Shown here piece by piece: positions 2,640 through 58,869 of a stretch of 64,000 bases of DNA. Where the stretch lies: IMG/VR virus record IMGVR_UViG_3300045988_083782; one strand, given 5' to 3'. This stretch comes from a virus. Below the pieces are notes generated by a model. That model was given only the letters and a program-made list of their open reading frames with translations. It ran no database searches and was not told the DNA's origin. How positions within the stretch are numbered: the first letter of the stretch is position 1; the number at the start of each line of letters is the position of its first letter. A program made the position numbers and the translations under genes.

Positions 2640-3443
2640 TTAATCCTCTTCCTCTACATCATCATTAAACAAACGGGAAATACTCCGCAGTTTGTGTGCA
2701 GCATCTCCTGTGGTTAAACATTCACCTCTGCCGATATAAATATCTTGTTTGGTTTCTGTATATTTAACTGAAGCAGATGCTCCCATACAGGGATCTACGT
2801 AGAATTTAGCAGCTCTGAATTTGAACATCCAGAATCTAAACATCCACGAAGATACTGAAGTTAGAATTAATGGTTTAATTAGAGTTTCCTCTGGCTTCTT
2901 TACCATTACTTCTACATGCAACAAGTCAATATCTTCACCTCTATAGGATCCAACGTTTTTAGTATCTGTATAAACAGAAATACCAATTCTATAACCTTGA
3001 TCCTCTAGATAATCAACAAGTCGCATTACTGTATAAGCTCTGATCATTAATGATTCAGAGCTACACCAGGAATTTTCACAAATACAAACATGTAAATTAA
3101 TAAACTTACCTTGTCCAGCACCGTGATTTCGTATACGTTTTTTCATGGCAGGCATCCGTTCTAAGAACCGATCATAATTCATATCATCGCCATCAAATTC
3201 GTCATACTTATATTTCTTTCTTGAACCTCCAAGAAATAAATCTTCTTCGATTTTCTTAAGATTATCTAGACCTTCTTTGTAAGAAAACTTACTTTCTAGA
3301 ATCTTTTCTCTAGATAGACCTACCCATTCTGGATCGTTTCGTCTATCCATTTCTTCCCATATATTCAGTCGACCGGTTTCTTCAACTTTGTCGGCTTCAA
3401 TATAGAACTGTTCTACACTTGGTAACTTAATAGATAAATTCAT
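2640..3443 (-). CDS. hypothetical protein translationally coupled to the upstream AAA+ ATPase
   Basis: 267-aa ORF whose start overlaps the stop of the 3443-4732 gene. Confidence 0.5.
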   Translation of the reverse strand: MNLSIKLPSVEQFYIEADKVEETGRLNIWEEMDRRNDPEWVGLSREKILESKFSYKEGLDNLKKIEEDLFLGGSRKKYKYDEFDGDDMNYDRFLERMPAMKKRIRNHGAGQGKFINLHVCICENSWCSSESLMIRAYTVMRLVDYLEDQGYRIGISVYTDTKNVGSYRGEDIDLLHVEVMVKKPEETLIKPLILTSVSSWMFRFWMFKFRAAKFYVDPCMGASASVKYTETKQDIYIGRGECLTTGDAAHKLRSISRLFNDDVEEED

Positions 3444-5586: not shown

Positions 5587-6327
5587 TTATTCTGGTAAAA
5601 ATATTTTATCCCAATGAACGGTTACTTCATTGTTTTCATTGCTATCTGCAATTGCTATTTTCTGTCCTCTAAGATGTGGAGCTCGTGCCTCTCTTACTGA
5701 GTTATCGCCACCTTCGAACGAAATTATAGTTTCATTCTTTTTACGGTATACATAACCTACAGCATCAGCTTCCCCGCAGACAATATCACCTAAACGTCCA
5801 ACAAGGTCAATAGCCATTTCTGTGAGCTCTTCTCCATCTTTATTGATCATCTTATCTTTAGTATGACCAATTAGGATAAAGTTATCACATAGTTCCTTGA
5901 ACATATTAATAACTTTCTTTACAGCTTCTCTAATATAGAGATATCCAGCACCATTAGGTAACTGTCTAACATCTTCTCCTTTGAATGATTTACCCATTGG
6001 AGTTTGTCTATATAGAGATGCTGCAAATGGTAAACATATCTCCTCTAAACGAGTAGCATTATCAATTGCAATATACTTGTAAGGTCTCTTACCAGTCTCT
6101 GCAATCTTCTGTCTAATAGCATTTGCGATTTCTCCAAGATCATTGACTGTTCTAGCCTGAATTGAGAGGGCTTCGAGAAACTCGGAGCCACCCTCTAAAT
6201 CGACTATAAGACAGCCATCTAACTTAGAAATCAATGTAGTTTTACCAGATTTTGGTTTGCCAAATAAGATCAGAAATCTAGGATTCTGCACCTTTGGCGC
6301 ATTCTTTTCAGTAGGTAGTACTAACAT
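5587..6327 (-). CDS. RecA-fold ATPase, Sak4 / AAA_24-like
   Basis: 246-aa ORF with Walker A FGKPKSGKTT. Size and the adjacent SSB-like gene fit phage Sak4-type recombination ATPases. Confidence 0.6.
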   Translation of the reverse strand: MLVLPTEKNAPKVQNPRFLILFGKPKSGKTTLISKLDGCLIVDLEGGSEFLEALSIQARTVNDLGEIANAIRQKIAETGKRPYKYIAIDNATRLEEICLPFAASLYRQTPMGKSFKGEDVRQLPNGAGYLYIREAVKKVINMFKELCDNFILIGHTKDKMINKDGEELTEMAIDLVGRLGDIVCGEADAVGYVYRKKNETIISFEGGDNSVREARAPHLRGQKIAIADSNENNEVTVHWDKIFLPE

Positions 6328-6353
6328 ATTTGTTTTGTTAGATACTGCTTTAC

Positions 6354-6402
6354 GTTATCTGAAAGAATCTGAAAAAGTTATCTGAAAGAATCTGAAAAAG
6401 TT
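6354..6402. repeat. tandem 23-bp direct repeat carrying four ATCTGAAA boxes
   Basis: GTTATCTGAAAGAATCTGAAAAA occurs twice in tandem. ATCTGAAA starts at 6357, 6367, 6380 and 6390, giving spacings of 10, 13 and 10. The repeat lies upstream of the 5587-6327 gene. Confidence 0.8.
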
Positions 6403-6418
6403 GAGTAAAGTAGTATAA

Positions 6419-6919
6419 TTAAAGATTAATTACGGTTGTAGTTTTGTTTACCACCATGATGAAATTCAGAACGAATTTTCTTTGATATGATGATAGATTT
6501 TCCAAACAATAAACATTGTTACGCTTCGGGATGATTGTATTACCAACCTGAACATACGAGTCATATTCTCGTACCGGAAGTCCTCCGATTTTATAGTCAT
6601 ACCCACGAGGTAGATTACGCATCTCTGCATAATCGTGCAATTTCTTCAATGCACGTTCAAAATCCGTTGCAAGGTTATAATTACAACAGTTATTATTAAA
6701 CGGACACATACATTTAGATACGTGATAGCGCGGATTACATCCAAAGCCTACACGTTCTCCCGGACCGATATACTGATAACTTGTTTCAGTCTCAGGTCCA
6801 TCAATACCATCGATAGTCAATTCAGGATATGAATTATTCAGTTGATTCAACAAATACTGTTTGTATACGCCACGAGCGTCTGCTTTTTTATTCGGAAGTG
6901 TAATTGTAAAAGATTTCAT
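6419..6919 (-). CDS. hypothetical Cys-rich protein
   Basis: 166-aa ORF containing a CMCPFNNNCCNYN cluster. Confidence 0.45.
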   Translation of the reverse strand: MKSFTITLPNKKADARGVYKQYLLNQLNNSYPELTIDGIDGPETETSYQYIGPGERVGFGCNPRYHVSKCMCPFNNNCCNYNLATDFERALKKLHDYAEMRNLPRGYDYKIGGLPVREYDSYVQVGNTIIPKRNNVYCLENLSSYQRKFVLNFIMVVNKTTTVINL

Positions 6920-6957
6920 TTCAGCCTAATTTTAAAGTAAATAAATAATTTCTTGCG

Positions 6958-7884
6958 TTATTTTTCGACTAAGTTACCATATTTCAATTCATTCTCGAAT
7001 TCTAGTATGAATGGTTCTCCATCTCTTACTTTAAGAAAATGAAGATACACTTTGTCTTTTACAGGTAGACGGTCTATACCATAAGCTGTTATATTTAACA
7101 ACTCTGGTCGAGATAGAGCTGTCACATAGTCGCTAGCCTGAAAAATAGCATCAGATGCTGCAAGATCACTACGCATTGGATAATGCATAGAAGGGTTGTT
7201 AATACGATCCGGTTGTTCAATATTTCGATTCATCTGTGAAATCTGTATAATACTCGTATTAGAAAGCTTCTTTTTACGAATAAACATTTTCTGTAAATCG
7301 ACAATAGTACCTCTTTCAGATTCACCTTGGCCCTCTACAAGCAGGGCATGGTCAAGTATAACTATAAGCCATTTGCCTTTAGCTATGTTCTCGTGAAAGT
7401 AGTCAATAGTTTTTTCCATGTTCTCTACAGTACTTGGCGTATCAATATAATATATTGGATACTTTTTGATCTTATCTGCAACTTCTTCAATTTTATTGAA
7501 TTCAGTATTAGATAGACTTTGATCAGAACTATAGAGTTCTGCTGTAGTCTTTCTCAGTTTATTACTGAGCTTTCTACCTACCTGTCTGTAAGATAACATT
7601 TCATAACTAAAAGATAGTATAACTATTTCCTGATCCGGATTTAAATCAATTAAGTCAGTTTCAAGCGTATTTGCAAATGCAGATTTACCACTACCACTGC
7701 CTCCAGCTATAGTAACAATCATATTTGGCTCAATACCACCACAACATACTTTATTAAATTTATTCCACCTAGTCTTAAGTGGAACAATCGTTTTGTCTTT
7801 TCTCTTGCGAATGTATTCTAATGATTCATCAGCTACTTCAGAGATAGACCTGAATGGTAAAGTATTAAAGGATTTTTGTTCCAT
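6958..7884 (-). CDS. DnaB-like replicative helicase (RecA-fold domain)
   Basis: 308-aa ORF with Walker A TIAGGSGSGKS and Walker B-like LIVILDHALL. Confidence 0.6.
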   Translation of the reverse strand: MEQKSFNTLPFRSISEVADESLEYIRKRKDKTIVPLKTRWNKFNKVCCGGIEPNMIVTIAGGSGSGKSAFANTLETDLIDLNPDQEIVILSFSYEMLSYRQVGRKLSNKLRKTTAELYSSDQSLSNTEFNKIEEVADKIKKYPIYYIDTPSTVENMEKTIDYFHENIAKGKWLIVILDHALLVEGQGESERGTIVDLQKMFIRKKKLSNTSIIQISQMNRNIEQPDRINNPSMHYPMRSDLAASDAIFQASDYVTALSRPELLNITAYGIDRLPVKDKVYLHFLKVRDGEPFILEFENELKYGNLVEK

Positions 7885-17726: not shown

Positions 17727-18122
17727 TCAACTATCATCTATATAACCACATTTTTCTCTCACTGTAGGTAATCCTTCTGTTTCAGCGATAGAGTTGTCAC
17801 TTTCTAATAATATAGGCTCCTGACTCACAGAGTCTTGTTCAGCTAATTCTGCATTCCATACAACGGATGTAGAATTACTCTGTGTGGGATGATTAGAAAT
17901 CTCTACTGCTACTACAGCTTTCTCAGGAGTTTCCATTAATTTCTTAATGTGTTTTACTCCTGCACCTACAACTAAGCCTAATACTAGTAACATAATAGCT
18001 CTAGTAAAGACTTTTGGGTCCTTCATGCACATCGCGATTACATAAAGAACGACTATTGCAAAGAGCAATAATCCAACTACATTTGCCATAATTTGTAAGT
18101 ATTGGTTATTTATAATCTTCAA
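17727..18122 (-). CDS. membrane protein, candidate anti-sigma partner
   Basis: 131-aa ORF with two hydrophobic helices. Its start overlaps the sigma-factor gene stop by 17 nt. Confidence 0.45.
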   Translation of the reverse strand: MKIINNQYLQIMANVVGLLLFAIVVLYVIAMCMKDPKVFTRAIMLLVLGLVVGAGVKHIKKLMETPEKAVVAVEISNHPTQSNSTSVVWNAELAEQDSVSQEPILLESDNSIAETEGLPTVREKCGYIDDS

Positions 18123-18657
18123 AAAGTTGTCTTAGTTTTGCTCTTGCCTTATTGAGACACGTTTTCACGGTTGCCTCAGGAATAGCAAGCTCTTCGGATA
18201 TTTGATGGTAAGACTTCCCATCTAGGCGAGCATAGATAAGATCCCTATACTTCTTACGAAGCAATGGAATACATTTCATAATAACTTCTACATTCTGACT
18301 TAAAATCATCTGTTCTTCAGGGCTCTTTGTATTAGAATCAAGTTGACCAGTATATTCATCATCATCAATATAGTTGTTAAGTTGCTCTTTTTTAGTTCTT
18401 CTTATATAGTCAATTGAAGTATTAACAGCAATTGTTTTTAACCACATTTCAAATGAAATATGACTTACATAAGTTTGAAGCTTCTCGTAAACCTTTGTAA
18501 ATACTACTGATGTTAAATCATCTGCTACATCACTGTTTTTAACAATGTTATAAATAGTAAACCAAATAGTTTTATTATACTTTTGATATAACTTTGAGAA
18601 TGCTTTCTCAGAACCGTCTCTAGCTTGCTCTACTAAAAGTTTTTCTTCCTCTTTCAT
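18106..18657 (-). CDS. sigma-70 family (ECF-like) RNA polymerase sigma factor
   Basis: 183-aa ORF. The region 2-like segment is DDLTSVVFTKVYEKL..WLKTIAVNTSIDYIRR. The region 4 HTH is SYHQISEELAIPEATVKTCLNKARAKLR. Confidence 0.7.
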   Translation of the reverse strand: MKEEEKLLVEQARDGSEKAFSKLYQKYNKTIWFTIYNIVKNSDVADDLTSVVFTKVYEKLQTYVSHISFEMWLKTIAVNTSIDYIRRTKKEQLNNYIDDDEYTGQLDSNTKSPEEQMILSQNVEVIMKCIPLLRKKYRDLIYARLDGKSYHQISEELAIPEATVKTCLNKARAKLRQLFEDYK

Positions 18658-20639: not shown

Positions 20640-20953
20640 TTATTAAGTTCTAATATTTTACAGGGTCGAGAGCTTACAACAACACCTAACCAATTTATTA
20701 CACGCAGGGATATGACGTGGCTTTTTACGGCATTAGCTTAGCCGTTTGACTATTCTCAAGCACTCAGGCGAGTATAGTCAGATACGAAAGTTTTGCCAGT
20801 TATTGGCTTTATTGACCTATTCATTCTCTTCTTATCGCTGTCAAAAACCATAATGCCCCAGGTTTATACCGTTCAAAGATTTAAGAACTTGAAGCACGGT
20901 ATCACACTATCAAAAACTCTAGTTCTATTTCCTTAGTAGCTTTTAATAAAGCG

Positions 20954-21066
20954 TGGAGCATGAGGGGGTCGAACCCTCGTCCAAACGACGAATCAAATGA
21001 CCTAACAGTCAATGTGAATAGGCAGTTAACCAAAACTACCTACTCTAATATAAACAAATACTCTCC
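20954..21066 (-). ncRNA. elongated tRNA-like RNA 4 (113 nt)
   Basis: The T-arm is GAGGG-TTCGACC-CCCTC. Acceptor GGAGAGT/ATGCTCC has 5 Watson-Crick pairs, 1 GU and 1 mismatch. There is a D-like hairpin GGTAG-TTTTGGTTAA-CTGCC, and I found no canonical anticodon arm. Confidence 0.3.
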
Positions 21067-22022: not shown

Positions 22023-22421
22023 AATATAGTTATTTAAACGAAATTCAAAAAGAAGACTACTCTACTTATTTCTAATACTTATTCGTAGATAACCCTTTTC
22101 CTTCTCCTGACCCTATTATAGGGTTGACCGTTGTATAGTCCATAGTACTCTAGCTCACGCTTGTGGCTTCCTTTAGGGGTTTGGTATATTTGTAGTCTTC
22201 GGGGGACTGGTTCACCATTTACTAACATTTAGTTGAGTAAAAAACCTACAGTCTATCTGGCGGAAATCCTGTAGTTCAAAAATTGTAAACTGTAATCCGA
22301 TCATTGATTGCAATTCTGCAAAGCACTTCTACGGTCATACGGATCCATTTTACGGATCTTTTTAGTTGAACGTTTTCGTGCCTGAGCTTTCTGAGAAAGC
22401 TTTGAGCCTGGATATGAGTCC

Positions 22422-23107: not shown

Positions 23108-23493
23108 TTTACATAATATTTAAAATTTTAATGTTAATACTAATTTGATGACGTCTACTATTCTGCACCATAGTAGAATGTTAATAAAGACAACTCTTTG
23201 TCTTGGTATTATGCAGATACCACGTTTGCTACATACACTAACTTATTAAGCATGAAATCTTGTAACTAATTAATCTTAACTCCCACTAAGCACTTTTAAA
23301 GTTATGCAGAAATCACGTGGAAATGAAATCTTACTAACTACCTGATTTTTACGTCCGCACGATCATAAGTATAGATGTAATAACTCTTTGCACGTCACGA
23401 TACATCTACGTGAACAGTGACTGATCTGAGTTTCTAATATACTTACTTACGCCCCACAGGTTTGTCATTTTCTGATGATTTAAAGTAATTTAA

Positions 23494-25773: not shown

Positions 25774-25908
25774 AATATCTGTATATTTATAATTATAAAT
25801 GTTTACAAATAAAAATAGCAATACCTACTTCACAGTAGCATTTGCTATTAAGAGTTCTCCTTCTATCGAGTTAATAAAACGAATACATACAATCACGCTT
25901 GATTGTAG

Positions 25909-25990
25909 TGCTAGTTCAAGGATTCGAACCTCGATGGATTCCTCCACATTCTCAATGAGAATGCGCGTCTACCAATTCCGCCAAACTAGC
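25909..25990 (-). tRNA. type II Leu-like tRNA with non-canonical anticodon loop
   Basis: The 82-nt cloverleaf starts with acceptor GCTAGTT/AACTAGC and discriminator A. The D-arm GGCGGAATTGGTAGACGC is typical of tRNA-Leu. The variable arm is TGGA-GGAA-TCCA and the T-arm is CGAGG-TTCGAAT-CCTTG. The anticodon stem CATTC/GAATG carries loop TCATTGA, giving C33 and a nominal anticodon ATT. That stem can also extend to 7 bp. Confidence 0.55.
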
Positions 25991-26912: not shown

Positions 26913-27682
26913 TGTGTTGATATAATAGTTAGATACCTAAAGAAATTTGACACTTATTGTTCAGTTAGTGTCAGACTGTCAAGCACCTCATTAAGCATAT
27001 CGAGGTAATAGCTTATTCCCATCTATACTTGCTTTGGTTAGTTGCTACTAAAGGATGCACTCACAGCGAACCTAACTGTGTCCTTACCATATGGTTTTAC
27101 TATTATAATCTATTAATGTGCATTTTACACCTAAAACTTAAAACTAAAGGAATTCTCTACTCTGGCATTATGACCCTAGGGATCAATGTTGTAGTAGCTA
27201 AGTATTTATGTGGATAGTCCACAACCTTTAGATTCACATAAGAAACTGGTGCCCTCAATGTCTTGGGAAGTTATTGAGTTTTTTAGAGTGAGATACACAT
27301 TAGGCAAAGCTCTCGAGTTTGTACGTGAGAGAGTACACAGATTTATAAAGGTCTTATATGCCCTTTTGACCTATAAATTCAATATAAGGCTTTGTAATTT
27401 CATCAAAAGCCTTTAGAAAACTTCCAGTATTTCACTATGACTGCATTTCACATAGTGTTACTTGAATCTCGCTCAAGTGCAAAGTTCTAATCTCGTAGAA
27501 CACAATATAGACTATTATTCTCTGGTCTATAAGCAGATAGTAACAAGCTCTTCGCTTCGGTGGTCTATGTTACCTAACCACGCTAAGACTTACATAGATT
27601 TTCACTATCGCTTAGTTTTCTATTAAATGATCATGATTATGAAAGTTTAGAGTATATACGCTTTCAACTTTTTAAATGATAC

Positions 27683-33321: not shown

Positions 33322-33639
33322 ATGAAAAATATAATTGACGGTAAATTAAAAGTATGTATTACTGGTGACAATATGGAAAACATACAGGTAAGAGAACTAG
33401 AGAAAAAGTGCGGTTTCTATATTGATGAAACATACATTGCTGAAGAAGACGGAGAAGTACTTATCGATGGAGAACTAGTTCCGTTTAAAGCAGGTGATAT
33501 ACTAGCAATATATGGTACATGGGTTAGAGGTAACAGCGATAGATTAGAGTATCAAACAGTTGTTATTCCTAGTACAGATCAGTTAGCTATTTCGTTAAAA
33601 AAGACTATAAAAAAGACTGTTAATGAAGCTGCTTCATGA
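33322..33639 (+). CDS. hypothetical protein
   Basis: 105-aa ORF. Confidence 0.5.
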   Translation: MKNIIDGKLKVCITGDNMENIQVRELEKKCGFYIDETYIAEEDGEVLIDGELVPFKAGDILAIYGTWVRGNSDRLEYQTVVIPSTDQLAISLKKTIKKTVNEAAS

Positions 33640-33696
33640 AGAAAATCCACCAATTGAAGAGGATTTTAACCCCTGAAGTGATAAAGATAGAGCCGT

Positions 33697-34224
33697 ATGA
33701 AGCTATTTGACATACTTGGAGGTAAAGTAGTAATACATTCAGATGCTTTAGGTATCCCATGCTTTAAAAAGGTGTGGGATGCTGACAAACCTGATAAAGA
33801 GCATGCTACTAATATAATCAGTTACATTGTATTAAAGAATAAATGGGATAGTCCATATGTACTTAGTTCTGATAAAGAGAATATTGAACCAAGGCTTAAG
33901 AAACAACTACTAGGTGATGCTAATTATAAGCTGACTACAGATGAAATACAATGTGAAAAAGAATTCATAGGATTTCAAAATACTAATACTTTACAGATGC
34001 TAACTAATATGCGTTTGAAGTTAGATAGTATTAGTAAGTACTATAGAGATTCACTAGATGAAATACTAGACGAGAAGAAGATTAAAGATATTCTAGCTGG
34101 TATGACAAGCGTAGGTAATGTCTATAAATCATTAGACTTACTTGAGAAAGCAGTTAAGAGTGAAGAGTTATCTAGTACTAAAGTAAAAGGTAATGCTGAG
34201 ATTAATCCTTATGAATTAAATTAA
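33697..34224 (+). CDS. hypothetical protein
   Basis: 175-aa ORF. Confidence 0.5.
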   Translation: MKLFDILGGKVVIHSDALGIPCFKKVWDADKPDKEHATNIISYIVLKNKWDSPYVLSSDKENIEPRLKKQLLGDANYKLTTDEIQCEKEFIGFQNTNTLQMLTNMRLKLDSISKYYRDSLDEILDEKKIKDILAGMTSVGNVYKSLDLLEKAVKSEELSSTKVKGNAEINPYELN

Positions 34225-34245
34225 TTTGTTTAAAAAAAACATTAC

Positions 34246-34464
34246 ATGGAAACTAGTATAAAGTTAAGCGTTTTATTGAGTATTAACACTGAAAATAATA
34301 TGAAGAACAATTTTACAATGCCAGATGTAGTTCTGGATCTTACAGACGAGAATAAAGATATTTTTGAAGCTATTGCAGAATGTGAAGCTAAACGCCAAGA
34401 TCTATTGCATTCTCCGTGGTATAAGAGAATCTTTAAACCTGTAAAACGTAGTTTGAAGAAATAA
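34246..34464 (+). CDS. hypothetical protein
   Basis: 72-aa ORF. Confidence 0.4.
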   Translation: METSIKLSVLLSINTENNMKNNFTMPDVVLDLTDENKDIFEAIAECEAKRQDLLHSPWYKRIFKPVKRSLKK

Positions 34465-34528
34465 CTATTCAATAGTAAAGTTATGACTAGACATAGCTTG
34501 AGTGTCTTAAAAGAAGTCAAGCATACAT

Positions 34529-34603
34529 TCTCCTATGGTGTAATGGTTAGCACAGGAGGCTCTAACCCTCTTAGTCTGAGTTCGAATCTTAGTGGGAGTA
34601 CCA
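34529..34603 (+). tRNA. suppressor tRNA, Gln-type body, anticodon CUA (reads UAG)
   Basis: Hand-folded cloverleaf of 75 nt. The acceptor is TCTCCTA/TGGGAGT (6 pairs, U1-U72 mismatch). The D-arm is GTGT-AATGGTTA-GCAC. The anticodon arm is GGAGG-CTCTAAC-CCTCT with CTA at positions 34-36. The T-arm is CTGAG-TTCGAAT-CTTAG, and A73 and CCA are encoded. ATGGTGTAATGGTTAGCAC is typical of tRNA-Gln. Confidence 0.8.
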
Positions 34604-34739
34604 ATAAATATTGAAGATGAGCGCGCATCAACGTAACCACCTAAGTCACTTACTATTTGATCCAATAGTAAACACAGCTAATGATGGTCCTAATCGTAAG
34701 TAGGCACTTTTATAGAGTTAAGTGGTATAACTCTATTAT

Positions 34740-34812
34740 GGCGGGATGTAGCAGTTGGTAGCTAGTCAGGCTCATAACCTGAAGGTCGTTGGTTCGAGTC
34801 CAACTCCCGCAA
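34740..34812 (+). tRNA. initiator-type tRNA-Met (anticodon CAU)
   Basis: The 73-nt cloverleaf closely parallels bacterial tRNA-fMet. It has a 1-72 mismatch (G-A), an A11-U24 pair in the D-stem TAGC/GCTA, the loop CTCATAA, AGGTC in the variable loop and the 3' strand TCCCGCA-A. Confidence 0.75.
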
Positions 34813-34817
34813 CATTT

Positions 34818-34841
34818 AGGGAGGTTAAATACCTCCCTTTT
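34818..34841 (+). terminator. rho-independent terminator after the tRNA pair
   Basis: AGGGAGGT-TAAAT-ACCTCCCT followed by TTT. Confidence 0.65.
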
Positions 34842-34860
34842 CAATTCGGAAAAGAAGATA

Positions 34861-36945
34861 ATGGAAGACAGATAGATAGTAAGCAAGATTGATTTTTATA
34901 AGCCTATTAAGAATAGCAATAAGTTCAGAAAGCCAGCTCTATAGTACATAGAGACTGGCTCTTATTGTTCCTACCCTAAGAATACTACAGAGTATTTTCA
35001 ATTCTGGGATAAGGAAATTAGATATTGTATAGATGGTTATACTGCTGAAGACGGTGATTGGATAAGCGGGTATAACTATTTTTATTTGAACTATTGTCCT
35101 ATCTCTAGAGTAGTGTATGAAACATATACAGATAGATTTGGCAATCAAAAGAAACGCAAAGTAAAGAAAGTAGAATTTGCTGATTTCTGGGATTATGATT
35201 ACTATTACTTTACTGCTATATAGGAAGCTGAAGAATCAGGTACACATATGTGTGTATTAAAAGCCAGACGTCGTGGTTACTCCTTTAAAGGTGCAGCTAT
35301 GGCTTGCCGTAACTATTATCTAATACCAGATAGTAAGACATATATATATGCATCAAATAAACAGTATCTTACTGAAGATGGTATTCTTACTAAAGCGTGG
35401 GACTACATGGACTTTATTGATAAGAATACAGCTTGGGGTAAGAAAAGATCTGTTAATACTTAGATGCGTAAACGTGCAGCTGTTAATGTTAAAGACGAGT
35501 ATGGTAATGAAATAGAATTGGGTTACAAATCTGAAATCATTGGTGTTACTCTAAAAGACAATCCTGACGTAGTACGTGGTAAATCAGGTAAGCTTATCTT
35601 ATTTGAGGAAGCAGGTTCATTCAGTGAATTAGGTGCAGCATGGCAGATTGCTAGACCTTCTGTAGAACAAGATGGTGTAGCGTATGGTCTTATGTTAGCA
35701 TTTGGTACTGGTGGTGACCCTTCTTCAGCATTTGATACACTGAAGGACATGTTCTATAATCCTAAAGGCTATAATTGTTTAGGCTTCTAGAATATATGGG
35801 ATGAAAACCCAGGAGATAAACCGTGTGGATTCTTTGTGCCACAGTATACTAATATATCTGACATGGACGATAATGGCAATCGTCTGTATATGGATGTAGA
35901 TGGTAATACTTTGCATAAAAAGTCAATAGACAGAATATTAGACTTACGTAGAGATGTAATAGAAAATGCTACTAGCACTACAGCTGTAGATAGATATGTA
36001 GCAGAGCGACCTATTACACCTGCTGAAGCAATGCTCGAATTTAATGGTAACATCTTCCCTAAGAAAGAATTACAAGCACATTTAGCTATGATTCGTACCA
36101 ATCGTAGTCTACAAAATCACAAACAAGTAGGTGACTTGGTGTTTGGTGATGATGGCTTACTTAAGTGGATACCTAAGAAGAGAGGCGACATTACTAAATA
36201 TCCGTTAAGTAAAGATGATGACCCTACTGGTTCAATAGTAATATGGGAACACCCAGTATAGGACGCACCTGTTGGATTGTACATAGCGGGTATGGACCCG
36301 TATGACCATGATTAGGCTGGTACTAATTCATTAGGCTCTATGTTCATTTACAAGCGATTCTAGAGCTTTGAAGAATATTATGATATAATTGTTGCTGAGT
36401 ATACTGGAAGGCCTTCTACAGCAGAGGAATACTACGAGAATGCACGTAAACTATTGCTTTACTATAATGCTAGATTGATGTACGAAAATGAACGTAAAGG
36501 CATATTCCCATACTTTACTGCTAAACATTGTGATTACTTACTAGCAGATCAACCTGATATCATTAACGACATTGTTGGTAACTCAAAAGTATAGCGTAGA
36601 AAGGGTTGCCATATCAATAAGTAGATTAAGGACTGGGGTGAAGGTATGATAAAAGATTGGCTTAACGAAGAGTATGCTCCAGGCAAAAAGAACTTAACCA
36701 AGATACTATCAGAACCGCTATTGGAAGAACTTATAGGTTATAATGACAAAGGAAATTTCGATAGAGTGTGTGCGTTAATATAGCTAATGATTTATAAAGA
36801 ACAACTACATAATTTAGTTGTTAAAGAAAAGACTAAAGAGAATAGGAATAGGATATTATTTGATGGGCCAATATTTGCGCAACAGTGGTCAGATGAACCA
36901 AGTATGCCTAACCTATTTAATGATTCAAATACGTATACGTTTTAA
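34861..36945 (+). CDS. terL: terminase large subunit (11 in-frame TAG read as sense)
   Basis: A single frame runs from ATG 34861 to TAA 36943-36945 (694 codons). It links track ORFs 35248, 35464 and 35836 and untracked pieces. ATPase-region ARRRGYSFKG, KLILFEEAG and nuclease-region GMDPYDHD are present. All interruptions are TAG. Confidence 0.8.
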
Positions 36946-36947
36946 TT

Positions 36948-39449
36948 ATGAATAACATTAACATATTTCCTGCATAGAAAGTACCTATGTCTAAAAAGAC
37001 CAAGGAATGGAAAGAAAGCTGCGTGGATTATATTATTGGTCACAGTGCCTCTTCCAGAAATGGTAATAGTAGGAGTAGGGAAGAAGAGATGCAGACATAC
37101 TATGATCTGTATAATAGTATATACAATGAAAAAGATCTAAAGTATGTTACTAACCCATTTAAACAAGATGATGGGTTTCCTGCAACTGCTTAGGATTATA
37201 ATATTATTAAACCAAAGATAGATCTATTACTTGGAGAAGAGACTAAGCGCCCATTCAACTTTAGAGTAGTAAGAACTAGTGATATTGCTACTAGTGATCT
37301 ATAGGATAAAGCTAAACAATTACTTATTGATTATGTATAGGCATCTATTATGTCTAAACTTGGTCCCGAAGAGTAGGCTAGATATCAAGAGGCTTTACAG
37401 TCTGGTGAGATAATGACACCTGAGTAGATACAGAAATACTTAACAAAAGATTATAAAGATATTGCAGAAATTGCAGCACAACATAGTCTAAACTATTTGA
37501 AGCAGAAGTTAAATGTTACACATGAATTCTTCAAGGGGTGGAAGGATGCATTGATAGCTGGAGAAGAGATTTACTATGTAGGGGTAATTAATGGGGAACC
37601 TTATGTTGAAAGAGTAAATCCACTAAGTTTCAGTTATGAACAATCTGCTGATTTAGAATTCATTCACGAAGCATCTTGGTGCTGTCGTAAAATGAATATG
37701 TCTGCTACTGAGATCTATGACAGATTCTATGATAAAATGTCAGAGAAGTAGTTAAACGAATTGCTGGATATGATGGATGATGGTACCAGAGGAGGACTTA
37801 ATCCACAGGTTCGTAAGACATCTTTAGACTATCCGCATATTAAAACTAGAACTATTAATGGTTTTAGTTCTAACCCATTTCAAAATGCAGATAATATCAA
37901 TGTATGGCATTGTTGTTGGAAATCGTTTAAGAAGATTGGATTTGTTACTATCTTTAACCCTGAAACTGGGGCAGAAGAGGAATTTGAAGTAGATGAAAGT
38001 TATAAAGTTACAGGTAGGGAAGTTAACGTAGAATGGACATGGATTATCGAAGTATGGGAAGGATACAGAGTTGGAGAAGACCTATATATAGGTATACAGC
38101 CAGTTGAGTATCAACATATCTCAGCTGATAACCCTAATTCGCAAAAACTGCCTTATACTGGCGTAGTATACAACAATACCAATAGTTCTCCTAGGTCCTT
38201 AGTTAGTATGATGAAACCATTACAGTATATGTATATTGTAATATGGTATAGACTTGAGCTAGCAATGGCTAGAGATAAAGGTAAAGTAGTAACTATGGAT
38301 ATTACTTAGATACCTAAAAGCATGAATATTGATGTAGCAAAGTGGATGCATTACTTAGGAGCTTTAGGTGTTAACTTTGTAAACCCATATGAAGAAGGTT
38401 GGGATATACCTGGTAGAGAAGGTGGTAAGCCATCACAGTTCAATCAGATTACCGCATTAGATCTTACTATGGCTAATACTATTGATCAATACATTAACCT
38501 GATGGATAAGATTGAATCAATGGTATCCGAGATTACTGGTGTTACTAAACAAAGAGAAGGAGCAATTTCATCTAATGAATTAGTAGGTAATGTTGAAAGA
38601 TCTGTAGTACAATCCGCTCACATTACTGAACCGTTATTCTGGGTTCACAATCAAGTAAAGAAAGAAGTATTAAGTATGTTACTCAATACTGCCAAGTTTG
38701 CATGGAAAGATGGCGATAAGAGATGTATACATTATGTATTAGATGATGCTACACGTGCATTCTTGACTCTTAATGATGACTTCTTCTATGAAGATATGGA
38801 TATCTTTTTGGATGATTCTACTAAGAATCAGCAACAGTTAGAAGCACTTAAACAGCTTATGCAGCCTGCTATGCAGAATGGTGCTAGTCTATTAGATATC
38901 GCCGAAATCATTACAATGGATAACATTAATATGATTAAGAATCGCTTAGAAGACATTGAACAGAAGCGTATGGAACAGCAGCAAGCTTTGGAAGAGCAAC
39001 AGGCTCAGAGAGAACAGCAGATGATCCAAATGCAGAATGAAGTTAAGGAAGAGGAATTGATGATAAAAGAAGCAGAGATGGATCTTGAAAAGTATAAGAT
39101 AGATTCAGATAACGCTACTAGGATTACAGTTGCTCAACTTCAGGCTTACAGAGGATTAGAAGATCAAGATTAGAATGATAATGGTATTCCAGATACTATG
39201 GAAATCGCTGCACAAGCTTTAGCTGAACGTAAACAGGCATCTGAAGAAGCTGGTAAACAATTTGAATTCAATGCTAAACTTCGTGAACAATAGATGAAGA
39301 AAGAGATTGAAGACAAGAAGATTCAGCTTGAAAGAGAGAAATTAACAGCTGCTTAGAAACTACAAAAACAAAAGGATGAAGCGGCTATGCAAAGAGAAAA
39401 ACTTAAAGCAAAGACATCCCTAAAAAATAAAGTAGTAGGAGAGAAGTAA
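36948..39449 (+). CDS. portal protein (11 in-frame TAG)
   Basis: A single frame of 833 codons links track ORFs 36987, 37497, 37761 and 38322. The position right after TerL, the size and the Gln/Glu-rich C-terminal tail fit a portal. Confidence 0.65.
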
Positions 39450-43478: not shown

Positions 43479-44948
43479 ATGGATAATAATATTCTTAATA
43501 ATTTAGTACTATACAAAGGCAAAAGATTTTCTGATCTGATTGACACAAATAAGATCTCTTATGCTTCACAGCAAAGTCCTTATCAGGTATCTACTGTATT
43601 GTCTTATGTATTTGGTACAAAAGACAATGGTTATAGTACTTCTTTAGACATGCTTACCGGTGGTCTTGGAAACGTAATGACTATCGACAAAGCATCTTGG
43701 GAATGGCCTGTAATGATTGATGCAGATAGAGCTGTAACAATTAGAGATGCAAAATGGCAGGGAGAAGCTATCAGCGCTACTTCAACAGCTGGTTTAGGTA
43801 ATACACCTATCATGTTGTGGTTAGAAGAGAACATGTTTGCTTCTGGTGCTATTCTTGAATTTGATAACAAAGAATTCCAGGTACGTGTTTCTGGAGCTCC
43901 TTATCAGGATGGTAACCTGTGGGTTTATACTTGCTTTGTAGCAGATGGTAAACCTTCTTCTTATATTCCTGCTGATCTGTTAACAGCTGGTTGTCAAGTA
44001 TCTCGTCTTGCTTCTGCTTACGAAGAGTACTCAGAAGAAGGTGATATCCTGAACTACAGCACTCACTTCAAGATGCGTAACTACCTGACTACTATTCGTA
44101 TCAACTACGATATCACAGGTTCTGCTTATTCAGATGTAATGGCAATTGCTCTGAGAGATCCTGCAACAGGTAAAACATCTTATTTGTGGGCTGACTATCA
44201 GGAATGGCTTGCACTTCGTGAATGGTATAAGAGAACTGAAAGAATGTTGGTTTACATGAAGAGTAATGTAAACAAAGATGGTTCTTGTAACTTGAAGGGT
44301 ACTAACGGTCGTCCGGTATTTATTGGTGCTGGTCTGCTCGAACAGATTGCTCCGTCTAACAGACGTTACTATACTCGTCTTTCTGCTGAACTGTTGGAAG
44401 ATTTCTTAGCTGACCTGTCTTATAACTGTCTTGGTACTAACGAACGTAAGTTTGTTGCTTTGACTGGTGAAATGGGTATGCGTGAATTCGACCGTGTATT
44501 GAAAGAAAAAGCAACAACTATGAACTTGATCGATACAGTATTCGTAACAGGTTCTGGTGATAACTTGACTTTCGGTGGTCAGTTCAAGACTTATAAGATG
44601 ACTAATGGTATCGAATTGACGTTGAAATACTTCCCGTTGTATGATGATACTACTTATAATCGTCAGTTGCATCCGGTTACTCTGAAACCGCTGGAATCAT
44701 ATCGTATGACATTCCTGGATCTGGGTAGACGTGATGGTGAAGCTAACATTGTTAAGGTAGTTCGTAAAGACCGTGAATTCGTTACTTGGTATACTGGTGG
44801 TGCTGTTGCTCCGTCTGGATATGCTAAATCTAAAGATACTCTGAGATCTAATGGTAAGGACGGTTATACTGTATACTTCCTTGGTGAAATGGGTATCATG
44901 CTGAGAGATCCTAGAGCTTGTGGTGAGCTGATCATGGAGGCTGAGTAA
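43479..44948 (+). CDS. major capsid protein (no TAG)
   Basis: An uninterrupted 489-aa ORF follows the scaffold-like gene and is followed by a strong terminator. Codon usage is visibly shifted toward CTG, CGT, GGT and CCG, suggesting high expression. Confidence 0.6.
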   Translation: MDNNILNNLVLYKGKRFSDLIDTNKISYASQQSPYQVSTVLSYVFGTKDNGYSTSLDMLTGGLGNVMTIDKASWEWPVMIDADRAVTIRDAKWQGEAISATSTAGLGNTPIMLWLEENMFASGAILEFDNKEFQVRVSGAPYQDGNLWVYTCFVADGKPSSYIPADLLTAGCQVSRLASAYEEYSEEGDILNYSTHFKMRNYLTTIRINYDITGSAYSDVMAIALRDPATGKTSYLWADYQEWLALREWYKRTERMLVYMKSNVNKDGSCNLKGTNGRPVFIGAGLLEQIAPSNRRYYTRLSAELLEDFLADLSYNCLGTNERKFVALTGEMGMREFDRVLKEKATTMNLIDTVFVTGSGDNLTFGGQFKTYKMTNGIELTLKYFPLYDDTTYNRQLHPVTLKPLESYRMTFLDLGRRDGEANIVKVVRKDREFVTWYTGGAVAPSGYAKSKDTLRSNGKDGYTVYFLGEMGIMLRDPRACGELIMEAE

Positions 44949-54300: not shown

Positions 54301-55942
54301 TTTGTTACTGGATTATTATGTGACGGGTTCCGGTTGGGGAACGTTAAGTGCTGTTTCTAAGTTAGATTGGTATCATGGATCTTATGGTGGGGAAACTGCT
54401 TTTGGCGGTAGACAACAAAACACGATGGGATCTGCTGAGATTGTTTATTTGCGTGGTGGAGGTGTCTATTATTATAGAACTACTAATCACGGACAGTTAA
54501 CTGTTCATCCAAATGGGTATTCTTGGGCTAGCGGATCTTATACGTATAGTGCGGCAGTAAAAACCTCACAAGATAATTCTCCAATGGAGAAAACATTTGA
54601 TCAGGTATATTGGGCACCTGCAAATCTAAGAACAACAAGAAATTTATGGGGACAACCTTTTAATGGCACAAGCGATGTATCTGGAGCTTTGCAATATGTG
54701 ACTACCATTAATGCTTCTAGCACTATCTATACAGGTGGTGATATTATTGCTTACAGTAGACTGTTTTGTGGAGGTTATTTATATGTTCATAGAAACGCAC
54801 ATAGTAGTAGTGCAGCTCCTGCTATATCCTTAGCAATCGGAGACACTGATACCGGATTTAATTGGTATTCAGATGGTGCTGTACAGATTTATTCTAACGG
54901 GTCTGCTGTAGGAATGTGGACAGGTAGTGAGTTTAGATATGGTCACGGGTATTTTAAACAAGCTAGTGGAAACGACTATTCTCAATTAGGTATAATGGTC
55001 AACGGTAACGGTACTGCCAATACTATTAAACCTGGAATCGGTTTTCACCAACCAGGAGTATTTGCAGGATCTATAAGAATGAATGATGGTTCTACATTTG
55101 GACTCTATGCTCAGGGTGGTAGTGGTCTAGCAAACCTTAGTTTGAATGGATGGTATACAAATTTCGGTTATATAAATGGTGACGGAATACACCTTTCATC
55201 AGGTTGGCTTAGGACTGTTGGGGCTACAGGCTGGTATAATGAAACCTATGCTGGTGGTATGTACATGGCAGATGGTACTTGGATAAGAACTTATAACGGT
55301 CGAAAGTTCTATGTTGATAATGCAGAGGTAGATGCTATATTAACTCAGGGAGGTTTTAGAAGCAATGGCAATAGTCAAGTTGGCTTACAAATTGATGGTT
55401 CTGAATCTACTAGGACTATTATCTATGGAAAAATTGGTTCTACTGTAAATTCAGTAGTTGCCAGATATGCTGTAAACTGGTATTCTGAATGGGCACGCTT
55501 TGATGTACATCGAGGAGGAGGAACAGATATTCTAAAATTTAGCTGGAAACATAATGATACAGAATTAATGTATCTAGGTATGGGAGGTTATTTCCAAGTT
55601 AACGGTACTATTGTTTCTACAGGTGAAGTTACAGCATATTCTGATATAAGACTTAAAACCAATATTAAACCTCTAGATTATAAGGGAAGGTTAGCTCCTA
55701 AATGGTTTATCAAAGATAATAAGCCTAGTATTGGCTTCATTGCACAAGAGGTGTAGGCTTTATACCCTGAACTTGTTAAAGTAAACACAAGTACTATAGA
55801 GAATTACCTGAGCTTAAACTACGGTGCAATTACCGCAGTTCTCTCAGCTCAAGTAAATAAAGTAGAGGATGAAGTAGAAGTACTTAAAAATAGAATCAGA
55901 TAGCTTGAGAATGAAGTTGCTCTGTTAAAACAGAAACCTTGA
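51323..55942 (+). CDS. long tail fibre: constant N-terminal part plus currently expressed C-terminal module with S74-type chaperone end (15 in-frame TAG)
   Basis: A single frame runs from ATG 51323 to TGA 55940-55942, linking track ORFs 52112, 53090 and 53492. It has repeated GE[IV][ST]AYG motifs. The C-terminal SDIRLKTNIKPL...GFIAQEV is typical of the intramolecular chaperone peptidase domain of fibres and spikes. Confidence 0.75.
53153..53185 (+). repeat. 33-bp inverted repeat, left copy (inside the fibre ORF, encodes FLKADGSVDGN)
   Basis: TTCCTCAAAGCAGATGGGAGTGTAGATGGGAAT has its exact reverse complement at 58575-58607. Confidence 0.95.
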
Positions 55943-58574
55943 TCTCTAGCTCTCTTACTTTGTTTTTCAACGTAGTTACTTCATCTTCAACATGATTCAA
56001 CTATGCGGACAATACAGCAGTACATCCATTGTAGTTCAGAGATAAATATGGGCGATTCTTATCCTAGCCTAATACTAACTCTGGATACAATGCTTGTACT
56101 TCTTGTGCTATAAAACCTATTGATTGCTTACCATCCTTTACATAGTGTCTAGGTATAAGTCTTCCTCTATAGTTTAATGTATGTATATTACTTTTTAATC
56201 TAGCATCTGAGTATGCAGTTACCTCACCAGATGCAACCACACTGCCAGTTACTGATAGAGTACTTCCAGTAATTGTTACAACATAACTTCCTGTAGTATT
56301 GTTTACATCTCCATTTCTTCTACCTATATACATGTTTCCATCCTAATTAGAGTATATTCCCCATGTATAACTACGGTTAGCTAAATTAATTCCTATGTGA
56401 TTAGTGTTGTATAGCTTTATACCACAATAATGACCGCCAATACCCCAAGATCTGTAACCAGAGTTATATAACACTTTATTATTGTATACCTAAACCATAT
56501 CAGAATCAGTCATATAGATCCCACCTCCATAAGATTGAGAGTACCATCCGGTAGCACCGTCTGTACGTATCCAAGACGAAGCTCGAATATCACCAGATAC
56601 ATTTAATTTATAATCAGGACTAATTCCTCCAATTGCAACATTACCACCTCCATTACACATCTGTAAATGTTGACCTGATTTATGCTGTAAGTACAATCTA
56701 GAGTTCCAGTTATTTATCTCAGAAGAACATCCTCCGTCATTACCAGAATTATCAGTTTCTATACAAATATTTCTACTTTTTAAACCAATACTTGAAAAGA
56801 AGGTTTGCGCTGACCAATTGACGCCATCTTTATTACTATTATAAGCAGTCCATACTTCATAGTTTGTACCATAAGAAGTCCCATTAGAATTTTGGGTGCT
56901 TATACCAAATCTAGGTGTCCCATTTCTAATAAAATGTAAGGCACACATTGGAAGTACATCACCACCTGAGTATCCATTAATCCATAAGGTATCAGACCAA
57001 GGTCCTCCAAAACCAATACCAGTCATAGCAACTCTTAACCCCATGTGTTGAGAGAAATAAGTTTGCGGATTAGCTTGCGTTCCACCATTATATCTAGTAG
57101 GTAAATACGTAGCATACCCATCTATATTTCCAGTAATTGTATTCTTAGAGGTCAAGTTGGTAAATACCGCAGCTCCATTTGTTCTTATACTCCAATAAGC
57201 TTCCGCAGCTCCATCAGCAGAGCAAAGGTCTTGACAATATACCCATCCGGAATTCCCCGAAGATCCTATATACAGATTATGATTTAAAGAACAAACTCTT
57301 TGCCCATATATTATCGCACCAAAGATTTTACCAAATTGCCATGTTTCAGTACCTAAGAAAGAATTGCCTGAAGAAGATCCTTGCTCAAATGGAATTAATC
57401 CGGGTTTTGCTGTTCGTATCCAATCCGTATCAATATTTCCAACTTTACCCATTCCATAGTATCCATTCTTGTTTATAGCTCTGATGTAGTTATCATCATA
57501 TCTATTCATAGAAGTCTTAGGAACAAGTACAGCTCTTGATAGTCCTGTTTCTGCTGTTATAATAGATATACTAAATGAATTAATGACATAATGATTTGTA
57601 GTATTCTGACCACCAAATATTTGATATAAAAATACTTTAGGATAATGCCATTCATAAGTTAAACTCCCTAGTAATATACAACATCTACCTGCATTATCAT
57701 CGTAAGCAACTCTAACATCTCCACTAAATTCTCCATTAACTTGATAACTATAATTATAATAACCTGGACTAGCTGTATAATTATAAAAACTTACAGTTAT
57801 TTCAGAGCTACCTTTATTATCGTATTCATAAAGCATTATCTTATACACAGCCATAGTATTACTCCAAGTAATAGGCAATACTATCTTTATAGTTCCGGTC
57901 ATAGTACTACCGGTTCCATCAAACATAGAACCATTCCCAAAATAATTTGCTACAAATTTACCTCCTGACATATTTTGTGTAGACAAAACATCTGCGCTAA
58001 ATTTATTGCTTATAATCCAAGGAGCTTCAAACCATTCACCGCCTTGATTACCCATAAGTATTATTCCAGCTGTTGCACGATAAGCATCAAAATCAGTGTA
58101 AACAAATGCTACTTGTTGTGATCCATTTGCAGCAGAAAATACTAGTTTAGGAGGAGCAGAAAGAGATGGAGGATTGACAGCATCTGCTGAAATGAATAGA
58201 GAACCAGTCATGGTATCTCCAGTTTTTCTCACATACAATCCATCTGCATAATCTTTATCTAATACCATCTTCCATCCATTCCAAGAAGTGCCTATGCCTG
58301 TACGAAAACGAAGGTTAGCATTAGGATTATTTGTAGACGATGGTCCCGCTAATTGCCATGTTACATAGTCTACATTTGACCATCCACTTACAGATATACC
58401 ACTCCACCAAGTACCAGAAGGCATATCGTTTAGATTAAAGAAAGTGCTAATAGTTCTAGATTCAAAGTCTGTGGGAGCTGGGAAAGATTCTCTTCTATCA
58501 ATAACATGTAGAGAATTACTAACATTAGATTCTAAGACTTTATTCTAATTACCATTATATGCTAAGGCATACAA
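53186..58574. other. putative invertible tail-fibre segment (two convergent alternative C-terminal modules)
   Basis: The segment is bounded by the perfect 33-bp inverted repeat. It contains the 3' 2.76 kb of the plus-strand fibre gene and a startless minus-strand module. No recombinase gene was seen in the window. Confidence 0.55.
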
Positions 58575-58607
58575 ATTCCCATCTACACTCCCATCTGCTT
58601 TGAGGAA
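55896..58607 (-). CDS. alternative tail-fibre C-terminal cassette, no start codon in present orientation (5 in-frame TAG)
   Basis: The minus frame is continuous from the repeat (FLKADGSVDGN-LYALAYNGN...) through track ORFs 56490-58424 and 56064-56333 to TGA (rc of 55896-55898). It ends with SDARLKSNI...GFIAQEVQALYPELV. An in-frame TAA lies 11 codons upstream of the repeat, with no ATG, GTG or TTG between. Confidence 0.65.
58575..58607 (-). repeat. 33-bp inverted repeat, right copy
   Basis: Exact reverse complement of 53153-53185, in the same reading frame relative to its module. Confidence 0.95.
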
Positions 58608-58869
58608 CTAAGTTAAACAAATATAAATATGTATAAAATATTAGAAAATATAAGTAGTAGAGATCTATTAGAACACATATATGTAATGTAGTTATAGATA
58701 CTAAATAAACTAAATAAAATGGATGATGATGGTAAAGAATTTGCCTTAAATCTATTAGCTGATTTAATAGGTTCTAAGATAGTAGAGCGATAGGATTCTG
58801 TAATATTTGATTCTATCAATACTACAACTCGTAGTTAATTACGTTAAATATACATAAATTATATTAATA

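Follow-up and report, generated by a model that had tools for sequence, protein, structure and literature searches.

A Gln-type amber-suppressor tRNA gene in front of the TAG-recoded late genes of a crAss-like phage

Results

The locus and its code boundary

The window analysed here is a 64,000-nt stretch of viral DNA (IMG/VR record IMGVR_UViG_3300045988_083782), and the element under study is a 75-nt tRNA gene with the amber anticodon CUA at 34529–34603 on the + strand, referred to below as the suppressor (all coordinates are those of the window unless a relative is named). It is intact and conserved, and it lies at the boundary between a block of genes free of TAG, the last of which ends at 34464, and a block rich in in-frame TAG codons, in which TAG stands for glutamine. 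The first gene of the latter encodes the terminase large subunit (TerL), with its first ATG at 34861 and 11 TAG codons. A suppressor directly upstream of the recoded block had been predicted from the sequence alone, at 258 nt from TerL; the position holds, and 257 nt separate the end of the suppressor from the ATG, the same value within counting convention. The features of the locus are as follows.

359–34464, no strand assigned: standard-code block (primase, DnaB-like helicase, AAA ATPases, extracytoplasmic function (ECF) sigma factor, dUTPase and small open reading frames (ORFs))
34246–34464, + strand: last standard-code ORF before the suppressor, TAG-free, 72 amino acids (aa), no family match
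34529–34603, + strand: amber-suppressor tRNA, Gln-type (ARAGORN, Rfam RF00005, direct reading, same-slot homologues)
34611–34736, + strand: structured spacer RNA of about 125 nt between two tRNAs (covariation, conservation)
34740–34813, + strand: initiator-type tRNA-Met, anticodon CAU (ARAGORN; Rfam, 59 bits)
34818–34838, + strand: candidate terminator-like hairpin, 8 bp followed by TTTTC, the best + strand terminator hit
34861–36945, + strand: TerL, first recoded gene, 11 in-frame TAG against 13 CAA+CAG
34861–63911, + strand: recoded late block, whose 21 + strand genes contain 68 in-frame TAG and have TAA or TGA stops
36948–39449, + strand: portal gene, 11 in-frame TAG

The window (34% G+C) derives from a crAss-like phage in which TAG is recoded (code 15). 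Reading through TAG, and not through TGA or TAA, doubled the longest ORF and, between 34.8 kb and the window end, restored long genes on the + strand. Megablast of 33500–37500 matched only crAss-like phages from human faeces (72–78% identity), the best match being cr60_1 (NC_055891; Crassvirales, Suoliviridae, Buchavirus), in which the matched stretch is annotated in RefSeq, in order, as tRNA-Gln, tRNA-Met, the large terminase subunit and the portal protein; TerL of the window has 75% aa identity to the region annotated there as terminase large subunit. For annotation, this means that the window needs translation with code 15 from TerL onward.

Codon usage differed between the two blocks. Upstream standard-code genes (n = 53) contained no TAG and 252 CAA+CAG, compared with 68 TAG and 249 CAA+CAG (68/317 Gln-type codons, 21%) in the 21 late + strand genes from TerL on; in TerL alone, 11/24 Gln-type codons were TAG. 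As a terminator TAG is almost never used by this phage: the 55 upstream ORFs ended in TAA (42), TGA (12) or TAG (1), and the 21 late genes in TAA or TGA only.

An intact tRNA gene

ARAGORN called four RNA genes in the 64-kb window, one of them the 75-nt tRNA at 34529–34603 (+), with the anticodon given as cta, at position 34. Against the Rfam tRNA model (RF00005) the same sequence scored 55.0 bits, compared with a gathering score of 29 (E = 4.2e-9 over the window), and 34529–34600 aligned to model positions 1–71 of 71 as a full cloverleaf, in which the anticodon loop CUCUAAC places CUA (34562–34564) at positions 34–36. The predicted 75-nt cloverleaf with CTA at these positions is thus borne out by both programs, the model placing CUA there and no other triplet, with a score above the gathering threshold.

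Direct reading gave the same picture. A 5-bp anticodon stem, an 8-nt D-loop with GG, a 4-nt variable loop and a TTCGAAT T-loop are present, and the nucleotides of tertiary structure and processing are intact (U8, G10, G18G19, U33, A37, T54-T55-C56, A58 and G53-C61). The acceptor strands, TCTCCTA and TGGGAGT, form six intact pairs (2–7:66–71), U1 (34529) and U72 (34599) are mismatched, A73 (34600) is the discriminator and CCA is encoded at 34601–34603; both the encoded CCA and the 1:72 mismatch had been foreseen. The minimum-free-energy fold of the suppressor sequence alone was not a cloverleaf, as is common for unmodified tRNA sequences, and was not counted against the tRNA.

TAG codons alternate with glutamine codons

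Eighty related loci (77–98% identity) were fetched via the portal protein. TerL and portal were recoded in 80/80, with TAG positions varying among loci, and codon-column alignments were built from 75 distinct sequences each. In portal, 64 columns contained TAG, of which 55 also contained CAA and 50 CAG; in TerL there were 86 such columns, with CAA in 50 and CAG in 32. The runner-up alternatives were Glu and Lys codons, with Asn additionally in TerL. Gln codons made up 2300 of approximately 3880 non-TAG codons in the portal TAG columns, while His, Tyr, Ser and Leu each accounted for less than 1% and Trp was absent. Mutational proximity cannot explain this alternation, since CAA lies two substitutions from TAG, and the aligned codons indicate that TAG means glutamine in this phage group. 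The original prediction of glutamine as the inserted amino acid is therefore supported by codon alternation in relatives and not, as had been proposed, by the D-arm of the tRNA (see below). The base following TAG was a purine in 75% of cases, compared with 57% after CAA+CAG (p ~0.04), a weak bias in the direction favouring suppression over termination, which is suggestive only.

It is highly improbable that the suppressor carries another residue, whether pyrrolysine, His, Glu, Lys, Tyr, Trp, Ser or Leu. ARAGORN labels the gene 'Pyl' (tRNA-Pyl), but this label follows from the CUA anticodon alone. A tRNA-Pyl has a 6-bp anticodon stem, a very short D-loop without G18G19, a 3-nt variable loop and an atypical T-loop, unlike the suppressor, in which G18G19 and the T-loop are canonical, the anticodon stem has 5 bp and the D-loop has 8 nt. 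Histidine could be proposed on the grounds that the 20-mer of the D-arm occurs mostly in tRNA-His of Patescibacteria, but with A73, T at position 1 and no G-1:C73 the suppressor fails His identity. Glu and Lys have in their favour the runner-up codons noted above, against the predominance of Gln codons in the same portal columns, where His, Tyr, Ser and Leu are each so scarce.

A fixed slot with exchanged tRNAs

The position of the suppressor was surveyed in the 64 relatives that had at least 4 kb of sequence upstream of TerL. ARAGORN found a + strand CUA tRNA 146–1930 nt before the TerL ATG in 48/64, and two further relatives held a CUA anticodon arm that it had missed, giving 50/64 in total. 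Among these homologues, changes at 2:71 and 3:70 were compensated on both sides. Since CUA tRNAs fill the same slot in so many related loci and their acceptor changes are compensated, the suppressor gene is confirmed as real rather than a chance match. U1, A73 and encoded CCA were almost universal across the slot tRNA types, and 1:72, once three of the types had been put into register, was U·U in most copies, the remainder being mostly U-A or U·G. Because U·U at 1:72 recurs in most copies across several tRNA bodies, the mismatch is, on this comparison, to be regarded as a conserved trait rather than a defect.

The slot is prone to replacement of the tRNA within it. At least eight clearly different tRNA bodies were seen across relatives, among them the window type, the cr60_1 type, a 72-nt type (loci L003, L005 and L009 in our numbering), several types beginning TGGGG (U1-A72, G2-C71) and a 91-nt type with a long variable arm (L079, L081). 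TerL in L003, L005 and L009 is 98% identical to that of the window, yet these loci carry the 72-nt tRNA; among near-identical relatives, flanking sequence agrees with that of the window at almost every base, whereas about 20/75 positions of the tRNA body are different. Identical copies of the window tRNA are also present in IMG/VR contigs. The 91-nt CUA tRNA of L079 and L081 (6214–6304, + strand, in those loci) has the type II, Ser/Leu/Tyr-like shape and C1-G72, and the TAG sites of these phages still align with Gln in other phages.

In L012 (slot at 6228–7129 of that locus) and L060 a GIY-YIG/NUMOD homing endonuclease gene follows the slot tRNA, and in L014 an HNH endonuclease fills the slot, the tRNA being absent. 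Gene conversion driven by homing endonucleases is a plausible cause of the tRNA turnover. A fixed slot with exchanged CUA tRNAs and homing endonucleases would show how the code switch persists and spreads.

Decoding function and charging

On this evidence the suppressor is very probably a functional, Gln-inserting amber suppressor of a code-15 crAss-like phage, required for late-gene expression. It would be transcribed in a + strand precursor and its ends processed; the host glutaminyl-tRNA synthetase (GlnRS) would be the enzyme most likely to charge it with glutamine; and the charged tRNA would compete with host release factor 1 at UAG, allowing glutamine to be inserted at in-frame TAG codons, 68 or more in number, across the late genes, which start 257 nt downstream with TerL.

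Several points weigh against this reading. Fourteen of the 64 recoded relatives surveyed lacked a CUA tRNA in the roughly 10 kb to each side of TerL, so that the slot position is common but not obligatory; either the slot tRNA is not the sole TAG-decoding route or the gene sits elsewhere in those genomes. The suppressor also lacks G73, A72, G2-C71, G3-C70, G36 and U38 of the E. coli GlnRS identity set (G73, U1-A72, G2-C71, G3-C70, G10, U34/U35, G36, A37, U38; PMC9976931), of which it retains only U1, G10, U35 and A37, and it has C2-G71, U3-A70, A36 and C38. If the host uses the route through glutamyl-tRNA synthetase (GluRS) and GatCAB, loss of U1-A72 would be unfavourable. Finally, use of the standard code by the host is an assumption drawn from the literature.

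The force of the E. coli rule in the host may be limited, in that host-type Bacteroidales tRNA-Gln also has A73 and is variable at 3:70. A36 in place of G36 is required by the amber suppressor anticodon itself. Moreover, amber versions of tRNA-fMet, tRNA-Trp and tRNA-Ser turn into glutamine acceptors in E. coli, and pairs 1:72 and 3:70 together with U35 are key to glutamine identity (PMC9976931).

The relatives without a CUA tRNA near TerL could also be taken to mean that the gene is an inactive relic, with UAG decoding left to a host factor or to a tRNA from another locus, and published detection rates for such suppressors (Sup-CTA), at 40–52% of code-15 phages (Borges et al., 10.1101/2021.08.26.457843; Cook et al. 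2024), would fit the same view. We regard 50/64 slot occupancy as agreeing with these rates. That the gene is a relic is scarcely credible given its high covariance-model score and intact tertiary nucleotides, the compensatory nature of the substitutions in its homologues, and the refilling of the slot by different functional-looking CUA tRNAs when the body has been replaced.

The D-arm had been assigned to the tRNA-Gln family. A search of 185,579 species genomes with its 20-mer gave 120 matches: 101 in Patescibacteria tRNA-His(GUG), 15 in tRNA-Gln(UUG or CUG) and one in another CUA tRNA. With 101/120 matches in tRNA-His, the D-arm was rejected as a marker of the Gln isotype. The assignment stands in part, in that all matches on contigs labelled Bacteroides, Bacteroidales or Bacteroidota were tRNA-Gln(UUG), and chromosomal tRNA-Gln(UUG) of Bacteroides/Bacteroidales have U1, A73 and a D-arm, TATGGTGTAATGGTTAGCAC, identical to that of the suppressor. 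The proposed comparison with Bacteroidota tRNA-Gln, made here with Bacteroides/Bacteroidales genes, agrees at U1, A73 and the D-arm. Over the whole tRNA, the suppressor was identical to four chromosomal Bacteroides/Bacteroidales tRNA-Gln(UUG) at 48–54/73 positions, compared with 44–47/73 for tRNA-His genes; the tRNA-His genes that share its D-arm have G1-C72 and C73, which the suppressor lacks. The best explanation is that the suppressor descends from a Bacteroidales-type tRNA-Gln in which the anticodon has changed to CUA.

The 29 standard-code proteins scanned (of 55 ORFs) contained no domain of an aminoacyl-tRNA synthetase, a release factor or an amidotransferase, and charging presumably relies on the host for this reason. 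GlnRS is known to melt its tRNA's first base pair, as reported by Rould et al. (1989) and by Jahn, Rogers and Söll (1991). Plausibly, U·U at 1:72, being weaker than U-A, eases this opening and could offset the lost G36. The charging enzyme of such suppressors is an open issue in the recoding literature, and the conserved 1:72 mismatch may explain how the host synthetase is recruited.

Expression and timing of the late genes

The late proteins would be truncated unless UAG were decoded, from which it is a sound inference that the suppressor is needed for them to be made at full length. The original prediction went further, in that expression of the suppressor would license translation of the late genes. 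As a requirement this is well founded, judged from the in-frame TAG codons; as a temporal switch it may or may not hold, the promoter and terminator scans below favouring neither side, and the slot position is not obligatory, with 14/64 relatives lacking a nearby CUA tRNA. Recoding as a regulator or timer of late genes is itself a published hypothesis (Borges et al., 10.1101/2021.08.26.457843).

Somewhat short of an even chance, in our estimate, is that the suppressor is a decoding accessory rather than a timer, cut from the TerL transcript by RNase P and 3′ processing, with timing set transcriptionally and recoding serving another purpose. The suppressor lies on the TerL strand, and the terminator-like hairpin (34818–34838) ends 22 nt before the TerL ATG, leaving no room for a separate promoter. 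Scans for sigma-70-type promoters and for the Bacteroidota type (TTTG...TAnnTTTG) gave counts at or below shuffle expectation and no motif between the last standard-code ORF and the suppressor, and they carry no information on where the tRNA transcript starts. The promoter types scanned do not cover this phage and host, however, so a missing match says little, and the tRNA genes might just as well close the upstream standard-code operon at its 3′ end. As for the hairpin and its T-run, they could be a real terminator, but the hairpin is kept only in near-identical relatives, terminator-like sites were not enriched in the region (six found, 6.8 expected) and cr60_1 has none on the + strand after its tRNA pair. 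Because the hairpin stands only 22 nt from the ATG and has no cr60_1 equivalent, co-transcription of the suppressor with TerL is at least as likely as its prior expression. An ECF-type sigma factor (18106–18657, − strand; Sigma70_r2 and r4_2), a candidate controller of later genes, offers a candidate tRNA-independent, transcriptional route to late timing. All of this leaves the decoding function intact, and what is disputed is only licensing by prior expression.

A different main role has been proposed for such tRNAs, namely damage to the host by read-through of its UAG stops, in anti-defence or takeover (PMC7886860, PMC12386605), with phage use of TAG secondary. The near absence of TAG stops from the phage (1/55 upstream, 0/21 late) would make it immune to its own suppressor. 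As the principal role this is quite unlikely here: TAG makes up 21% of Gln-type late codons and nearly half of those in TerL, which makes decoding essential to the phage, and no sequence feature of the window bears on host damage. The two roles are in any case compatible.

A structured RNA and an initiator tRNA beside the suppressor

Between suppressor and tRNA-Met lie 136 nt whose conservation extends to cr60_1 and to a faecal contig from Mexico, and which contain a structured spacer RNA with three hairpins and an H-type pseudoknot, on the + strand.

34617–34628: hairpin H1
34650–34671: hairpin H2
34689–34704: hairpin H3, loop AUCGUAAG
34705–34708 with 34721–34724: pseudoknot stem A
34712–34719 with 34729–34736: pseudoknot stem B

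The joiners CAACGUAA, CCUAAGUCAC and ACACAGCU are invariant. The invariant core CAACGTAANNNCCTNAGTCNC, used as a query, was present in at least 120 viral contigs and, with the earlier loci, the spacer RNA is present in at least 146 loci, with about 45 distinct versions among the matches listed; an earlier form of the viral-contig scan, with CAACGTAANNNNCCTNAGTC, in which the gap was one base too long, had given 32 matches, all chance, and was discarded. In bacterial assemblies 43 matches were obtained, of which 41 were chance and two were true copies, on a Sphaerochaeta sp. metagenome-assembled genome (MAG) contig of 100,100 bp (L380) and a Bacilli MAG contig of 100,654 bp (L393). Both are probably crAss-like phage genomes mis-binned into MAGs.

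The structure was tested with 28 distinct spacer versions, in an anchor-based alignment with the three hairpins and pseudoknot explicit; anchor padding was used because MAFFT with RNAalifold misaligned the 3′ part of the spacer. In this alignment 96.1% of cells were paired and 22/26 pairs were changed on both sides. The covariation score was 0.656, compared with 0.189 in shuffles, and 0/500 shuffles reached the observed values; when partners were slid by 1–3 columns as a control, only 28–41% of cells were paired. The pseudoknot helices were located by complementarity, so that their 100% pairing is partly built in, and the sequences are also mutually related, but helices 1–3, placed by position alone, covary just as clearly. 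Even RNAalifold on the plain MAFFT alignment gave 10/14 pairs with double changes. G·U pairs indicate that the spacer would act as a + strand RNA.

An Rfam scan of 34200–35000, with E up to 10, returned no family for the spacer. By eye, the core motifs of hammerhead, hairpin, pistol and twister-sister ribozymes and of the T-box did not fit, and a GAAG:CUUC pairing was rejected, one side being invariant and the other varying freely.

Among the 146 loci listed, the nearest upstream + strand tRNA was CUA in 117, and a CAU tRNA started about 1 nt past the pseudoknot in 74. Flanked in this way by a CUA tRNA and a closely following CAU tRNA, the spacer RNA would be released by the enzymes that mature tRNAs. 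Its core was also absent within about 10 kb of TerL in relatives without the tRNA (for example L022, L032, L035 and L037–L041), although L014 keeps the spacer. In two other relatives, insertions of about 290 nt (L002, ~3073–3360) and 160 nt (L015, ~7227–7390), with no obvious ORF, separate the CUA tRNA from the spacer RNA.

The tRNA-Met that follows is of the initiator type, with A11:U24 and a G1·A72 mismatch. Its sequence is matched in all 5,426 E. coli genomes, with about 84% of positions identical from end to end and a median of four sites in each, and its best E. coli match was a tandem array of three tRNA-Met genes lying between mltA and amiC, which we take to be metZWV, the initiator genes. 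Beside its suppressor, just before the late genes, the phage therefore has an initiator tRNA of its own.

The swap-prone CUA tRNA, the pseudoknotted RNA and the tRNA-Met, which starts about 1–3 nt past the pseudoknot, make up a conserved three-part cassette at the code boundary. The middle RNA might be a new class of phage RNA that controls the code switch, with U1·U72 letting host GlnRS accept a tRNA without G36. This is a tentative and rather improbable reading, under which the middle RNA might, for example, gate how the flanking tRNAs are processed or released, or act in cis on RNA polymerase to carry it into the late operon. As a strongly covarying RNA without a known family, the spacer is a candidate for the regulatory link that is missing from the model in which recoding times late genes. 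The small stable RNAs of phage T4, species 1 and 2 (rnaC/rnaD), are co-processed with its tRNA cluster, and may be likened to the spacer RNA by analogy only: they too are structured RNAs of about 130 nt, embedded between phage tRNA genes, that would be released by tRNA processing. They are not known to be linked to a code switch.

Relation to known systems

Suppressor tRNAs and TAG-to-Gln recoding of late genes are known from crAss-like phages (Yutin et al. 2021, PMC7886860), their wider distribution and a regulatory model have been described (Borges et al. 2021, 10.1101/2021.08.26.457843), prevalence figures for Sup-CTA are available (Cook et al. 2024) and Peters et al. 2022 (PMC9523058) report metaproteomic evidence for code 15 in other crAss-like phages. 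The suppressor shares with published Sup-CTA its crAss-like order, CUA anticodon and TAG-to-Gln recoding confined to late genes. The finding is thus already known, and the window copy is an ordinary member of the Sup-CTA tRNAs. No GenBank phage record exceeded about 77% nt identity to the window genome. In the open-access literature we found no description of a swap-prone slot with homing endonucleases, of a conserved U1·U72 or of the spacer RNA, which is not proof of absence.

The closest annotated counterpart is the same-slot gene of cr60_1 (KNV49_gt02 in RefSeq NC_055891), annotated as tRNA-Gln, for which ARAGORN gave anticodon CUA. It occupies the same position upstream of TerL, has the same spacer RNA and then tRNA-Met after it, and is identical to the suppressor at 65/73 nt. 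The cr60_1 type has G2-C71 and C3-G70, in contrast to C2-G71 and U3-A70 in the window, the differences being compensated.

E. coli supE (glnV) is a chromosomal point-mutant tRNA-Gln with a CUA anticodon, which inserts Gln at UAG against release factor 1. The suppressor resembles it in combining a tRNA-Gln body with CUA, so that C34 and U35 are kept and G36 is lost; supE is still charged by GlnRS. It differs in its acceptor end, which has U1·U72, C2-G71, U3-A70 and A73 where supE has U1-A72, G2-C71, G3-C70 and G73, and in serving a genome that systematically uses TAG as a sense codon.

Compared with the known TGA-to-Trp code-switch module, the arrangement has the same licensing logic, in that the components of the switch use the standard code, or are compatible with it, and stand directly before a recoded late module. 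The TGA-to-Trp module, however, precedes the lysis cassette, whereas that of the window precedes TerL and the whole structural block, switches TAG to Gln and consists of RNAs only (suppressor tRNA, structured RNA, initiator tRNA). Borges et al. describe a code-change module in which a suppressor is adjoined by an aminoacyl-tRNA synthetase and/or a release factor; of these, only the tRNA is present here, judged from the 29 standard-code proteins scanned.

Other features of the window

In the standard-code block the primase is of DnaG type. On the + strand, just before the suppressor, lie a dUTPase, a DUF7399 protein, a protein whose match to a helix-turn-helix-like domain was weak and sub-threshold, and small ORFs without family. 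Further features are listed below.

20665–21045, − strand: putative permuted 'tmRNA*' (ARAGORN), tag peptide GKTFVSDYTRLSA
22050–22210, − strand: RAGATH-9, 128 bits, above the Rfam gathering score, in the standard-code early block
23340–23479, − strand: Hatchet ribozyme, 87.5 bits, above the Rfam gathering score, in the standard-code early block
25908–25990, − strand: 83-nt tRNA, Rfam 45 bits, long variable region, atypical anticodon loop UCAUUGA
26948–27146, − strand: RAGATH-7, 148 bits, above the Rfam gathering score, in the standard-code early block
43479–44948, + strand: major-capsid-sized gene, 489 aa, no TAG, 11 CAA+CAG
55896–58640, − strand: late-region gene with six TAG

No Rfam tmRNA family reached its gathering score at 20665–21045, and the ARAGORN call there may be false. 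The major-capsid-sized gene is free of TAG though its neighbours carry it, consistent with avoidance of suppressed codons in the most highly expressed late gene. For the 83-nt tRNA, which has C at position 33, ARAGORN gave anticodon AUU ('Asn'), and a call of the same type (tRNA-Asn, att, − strand, 83 nt) was obtained in one relative (L011).

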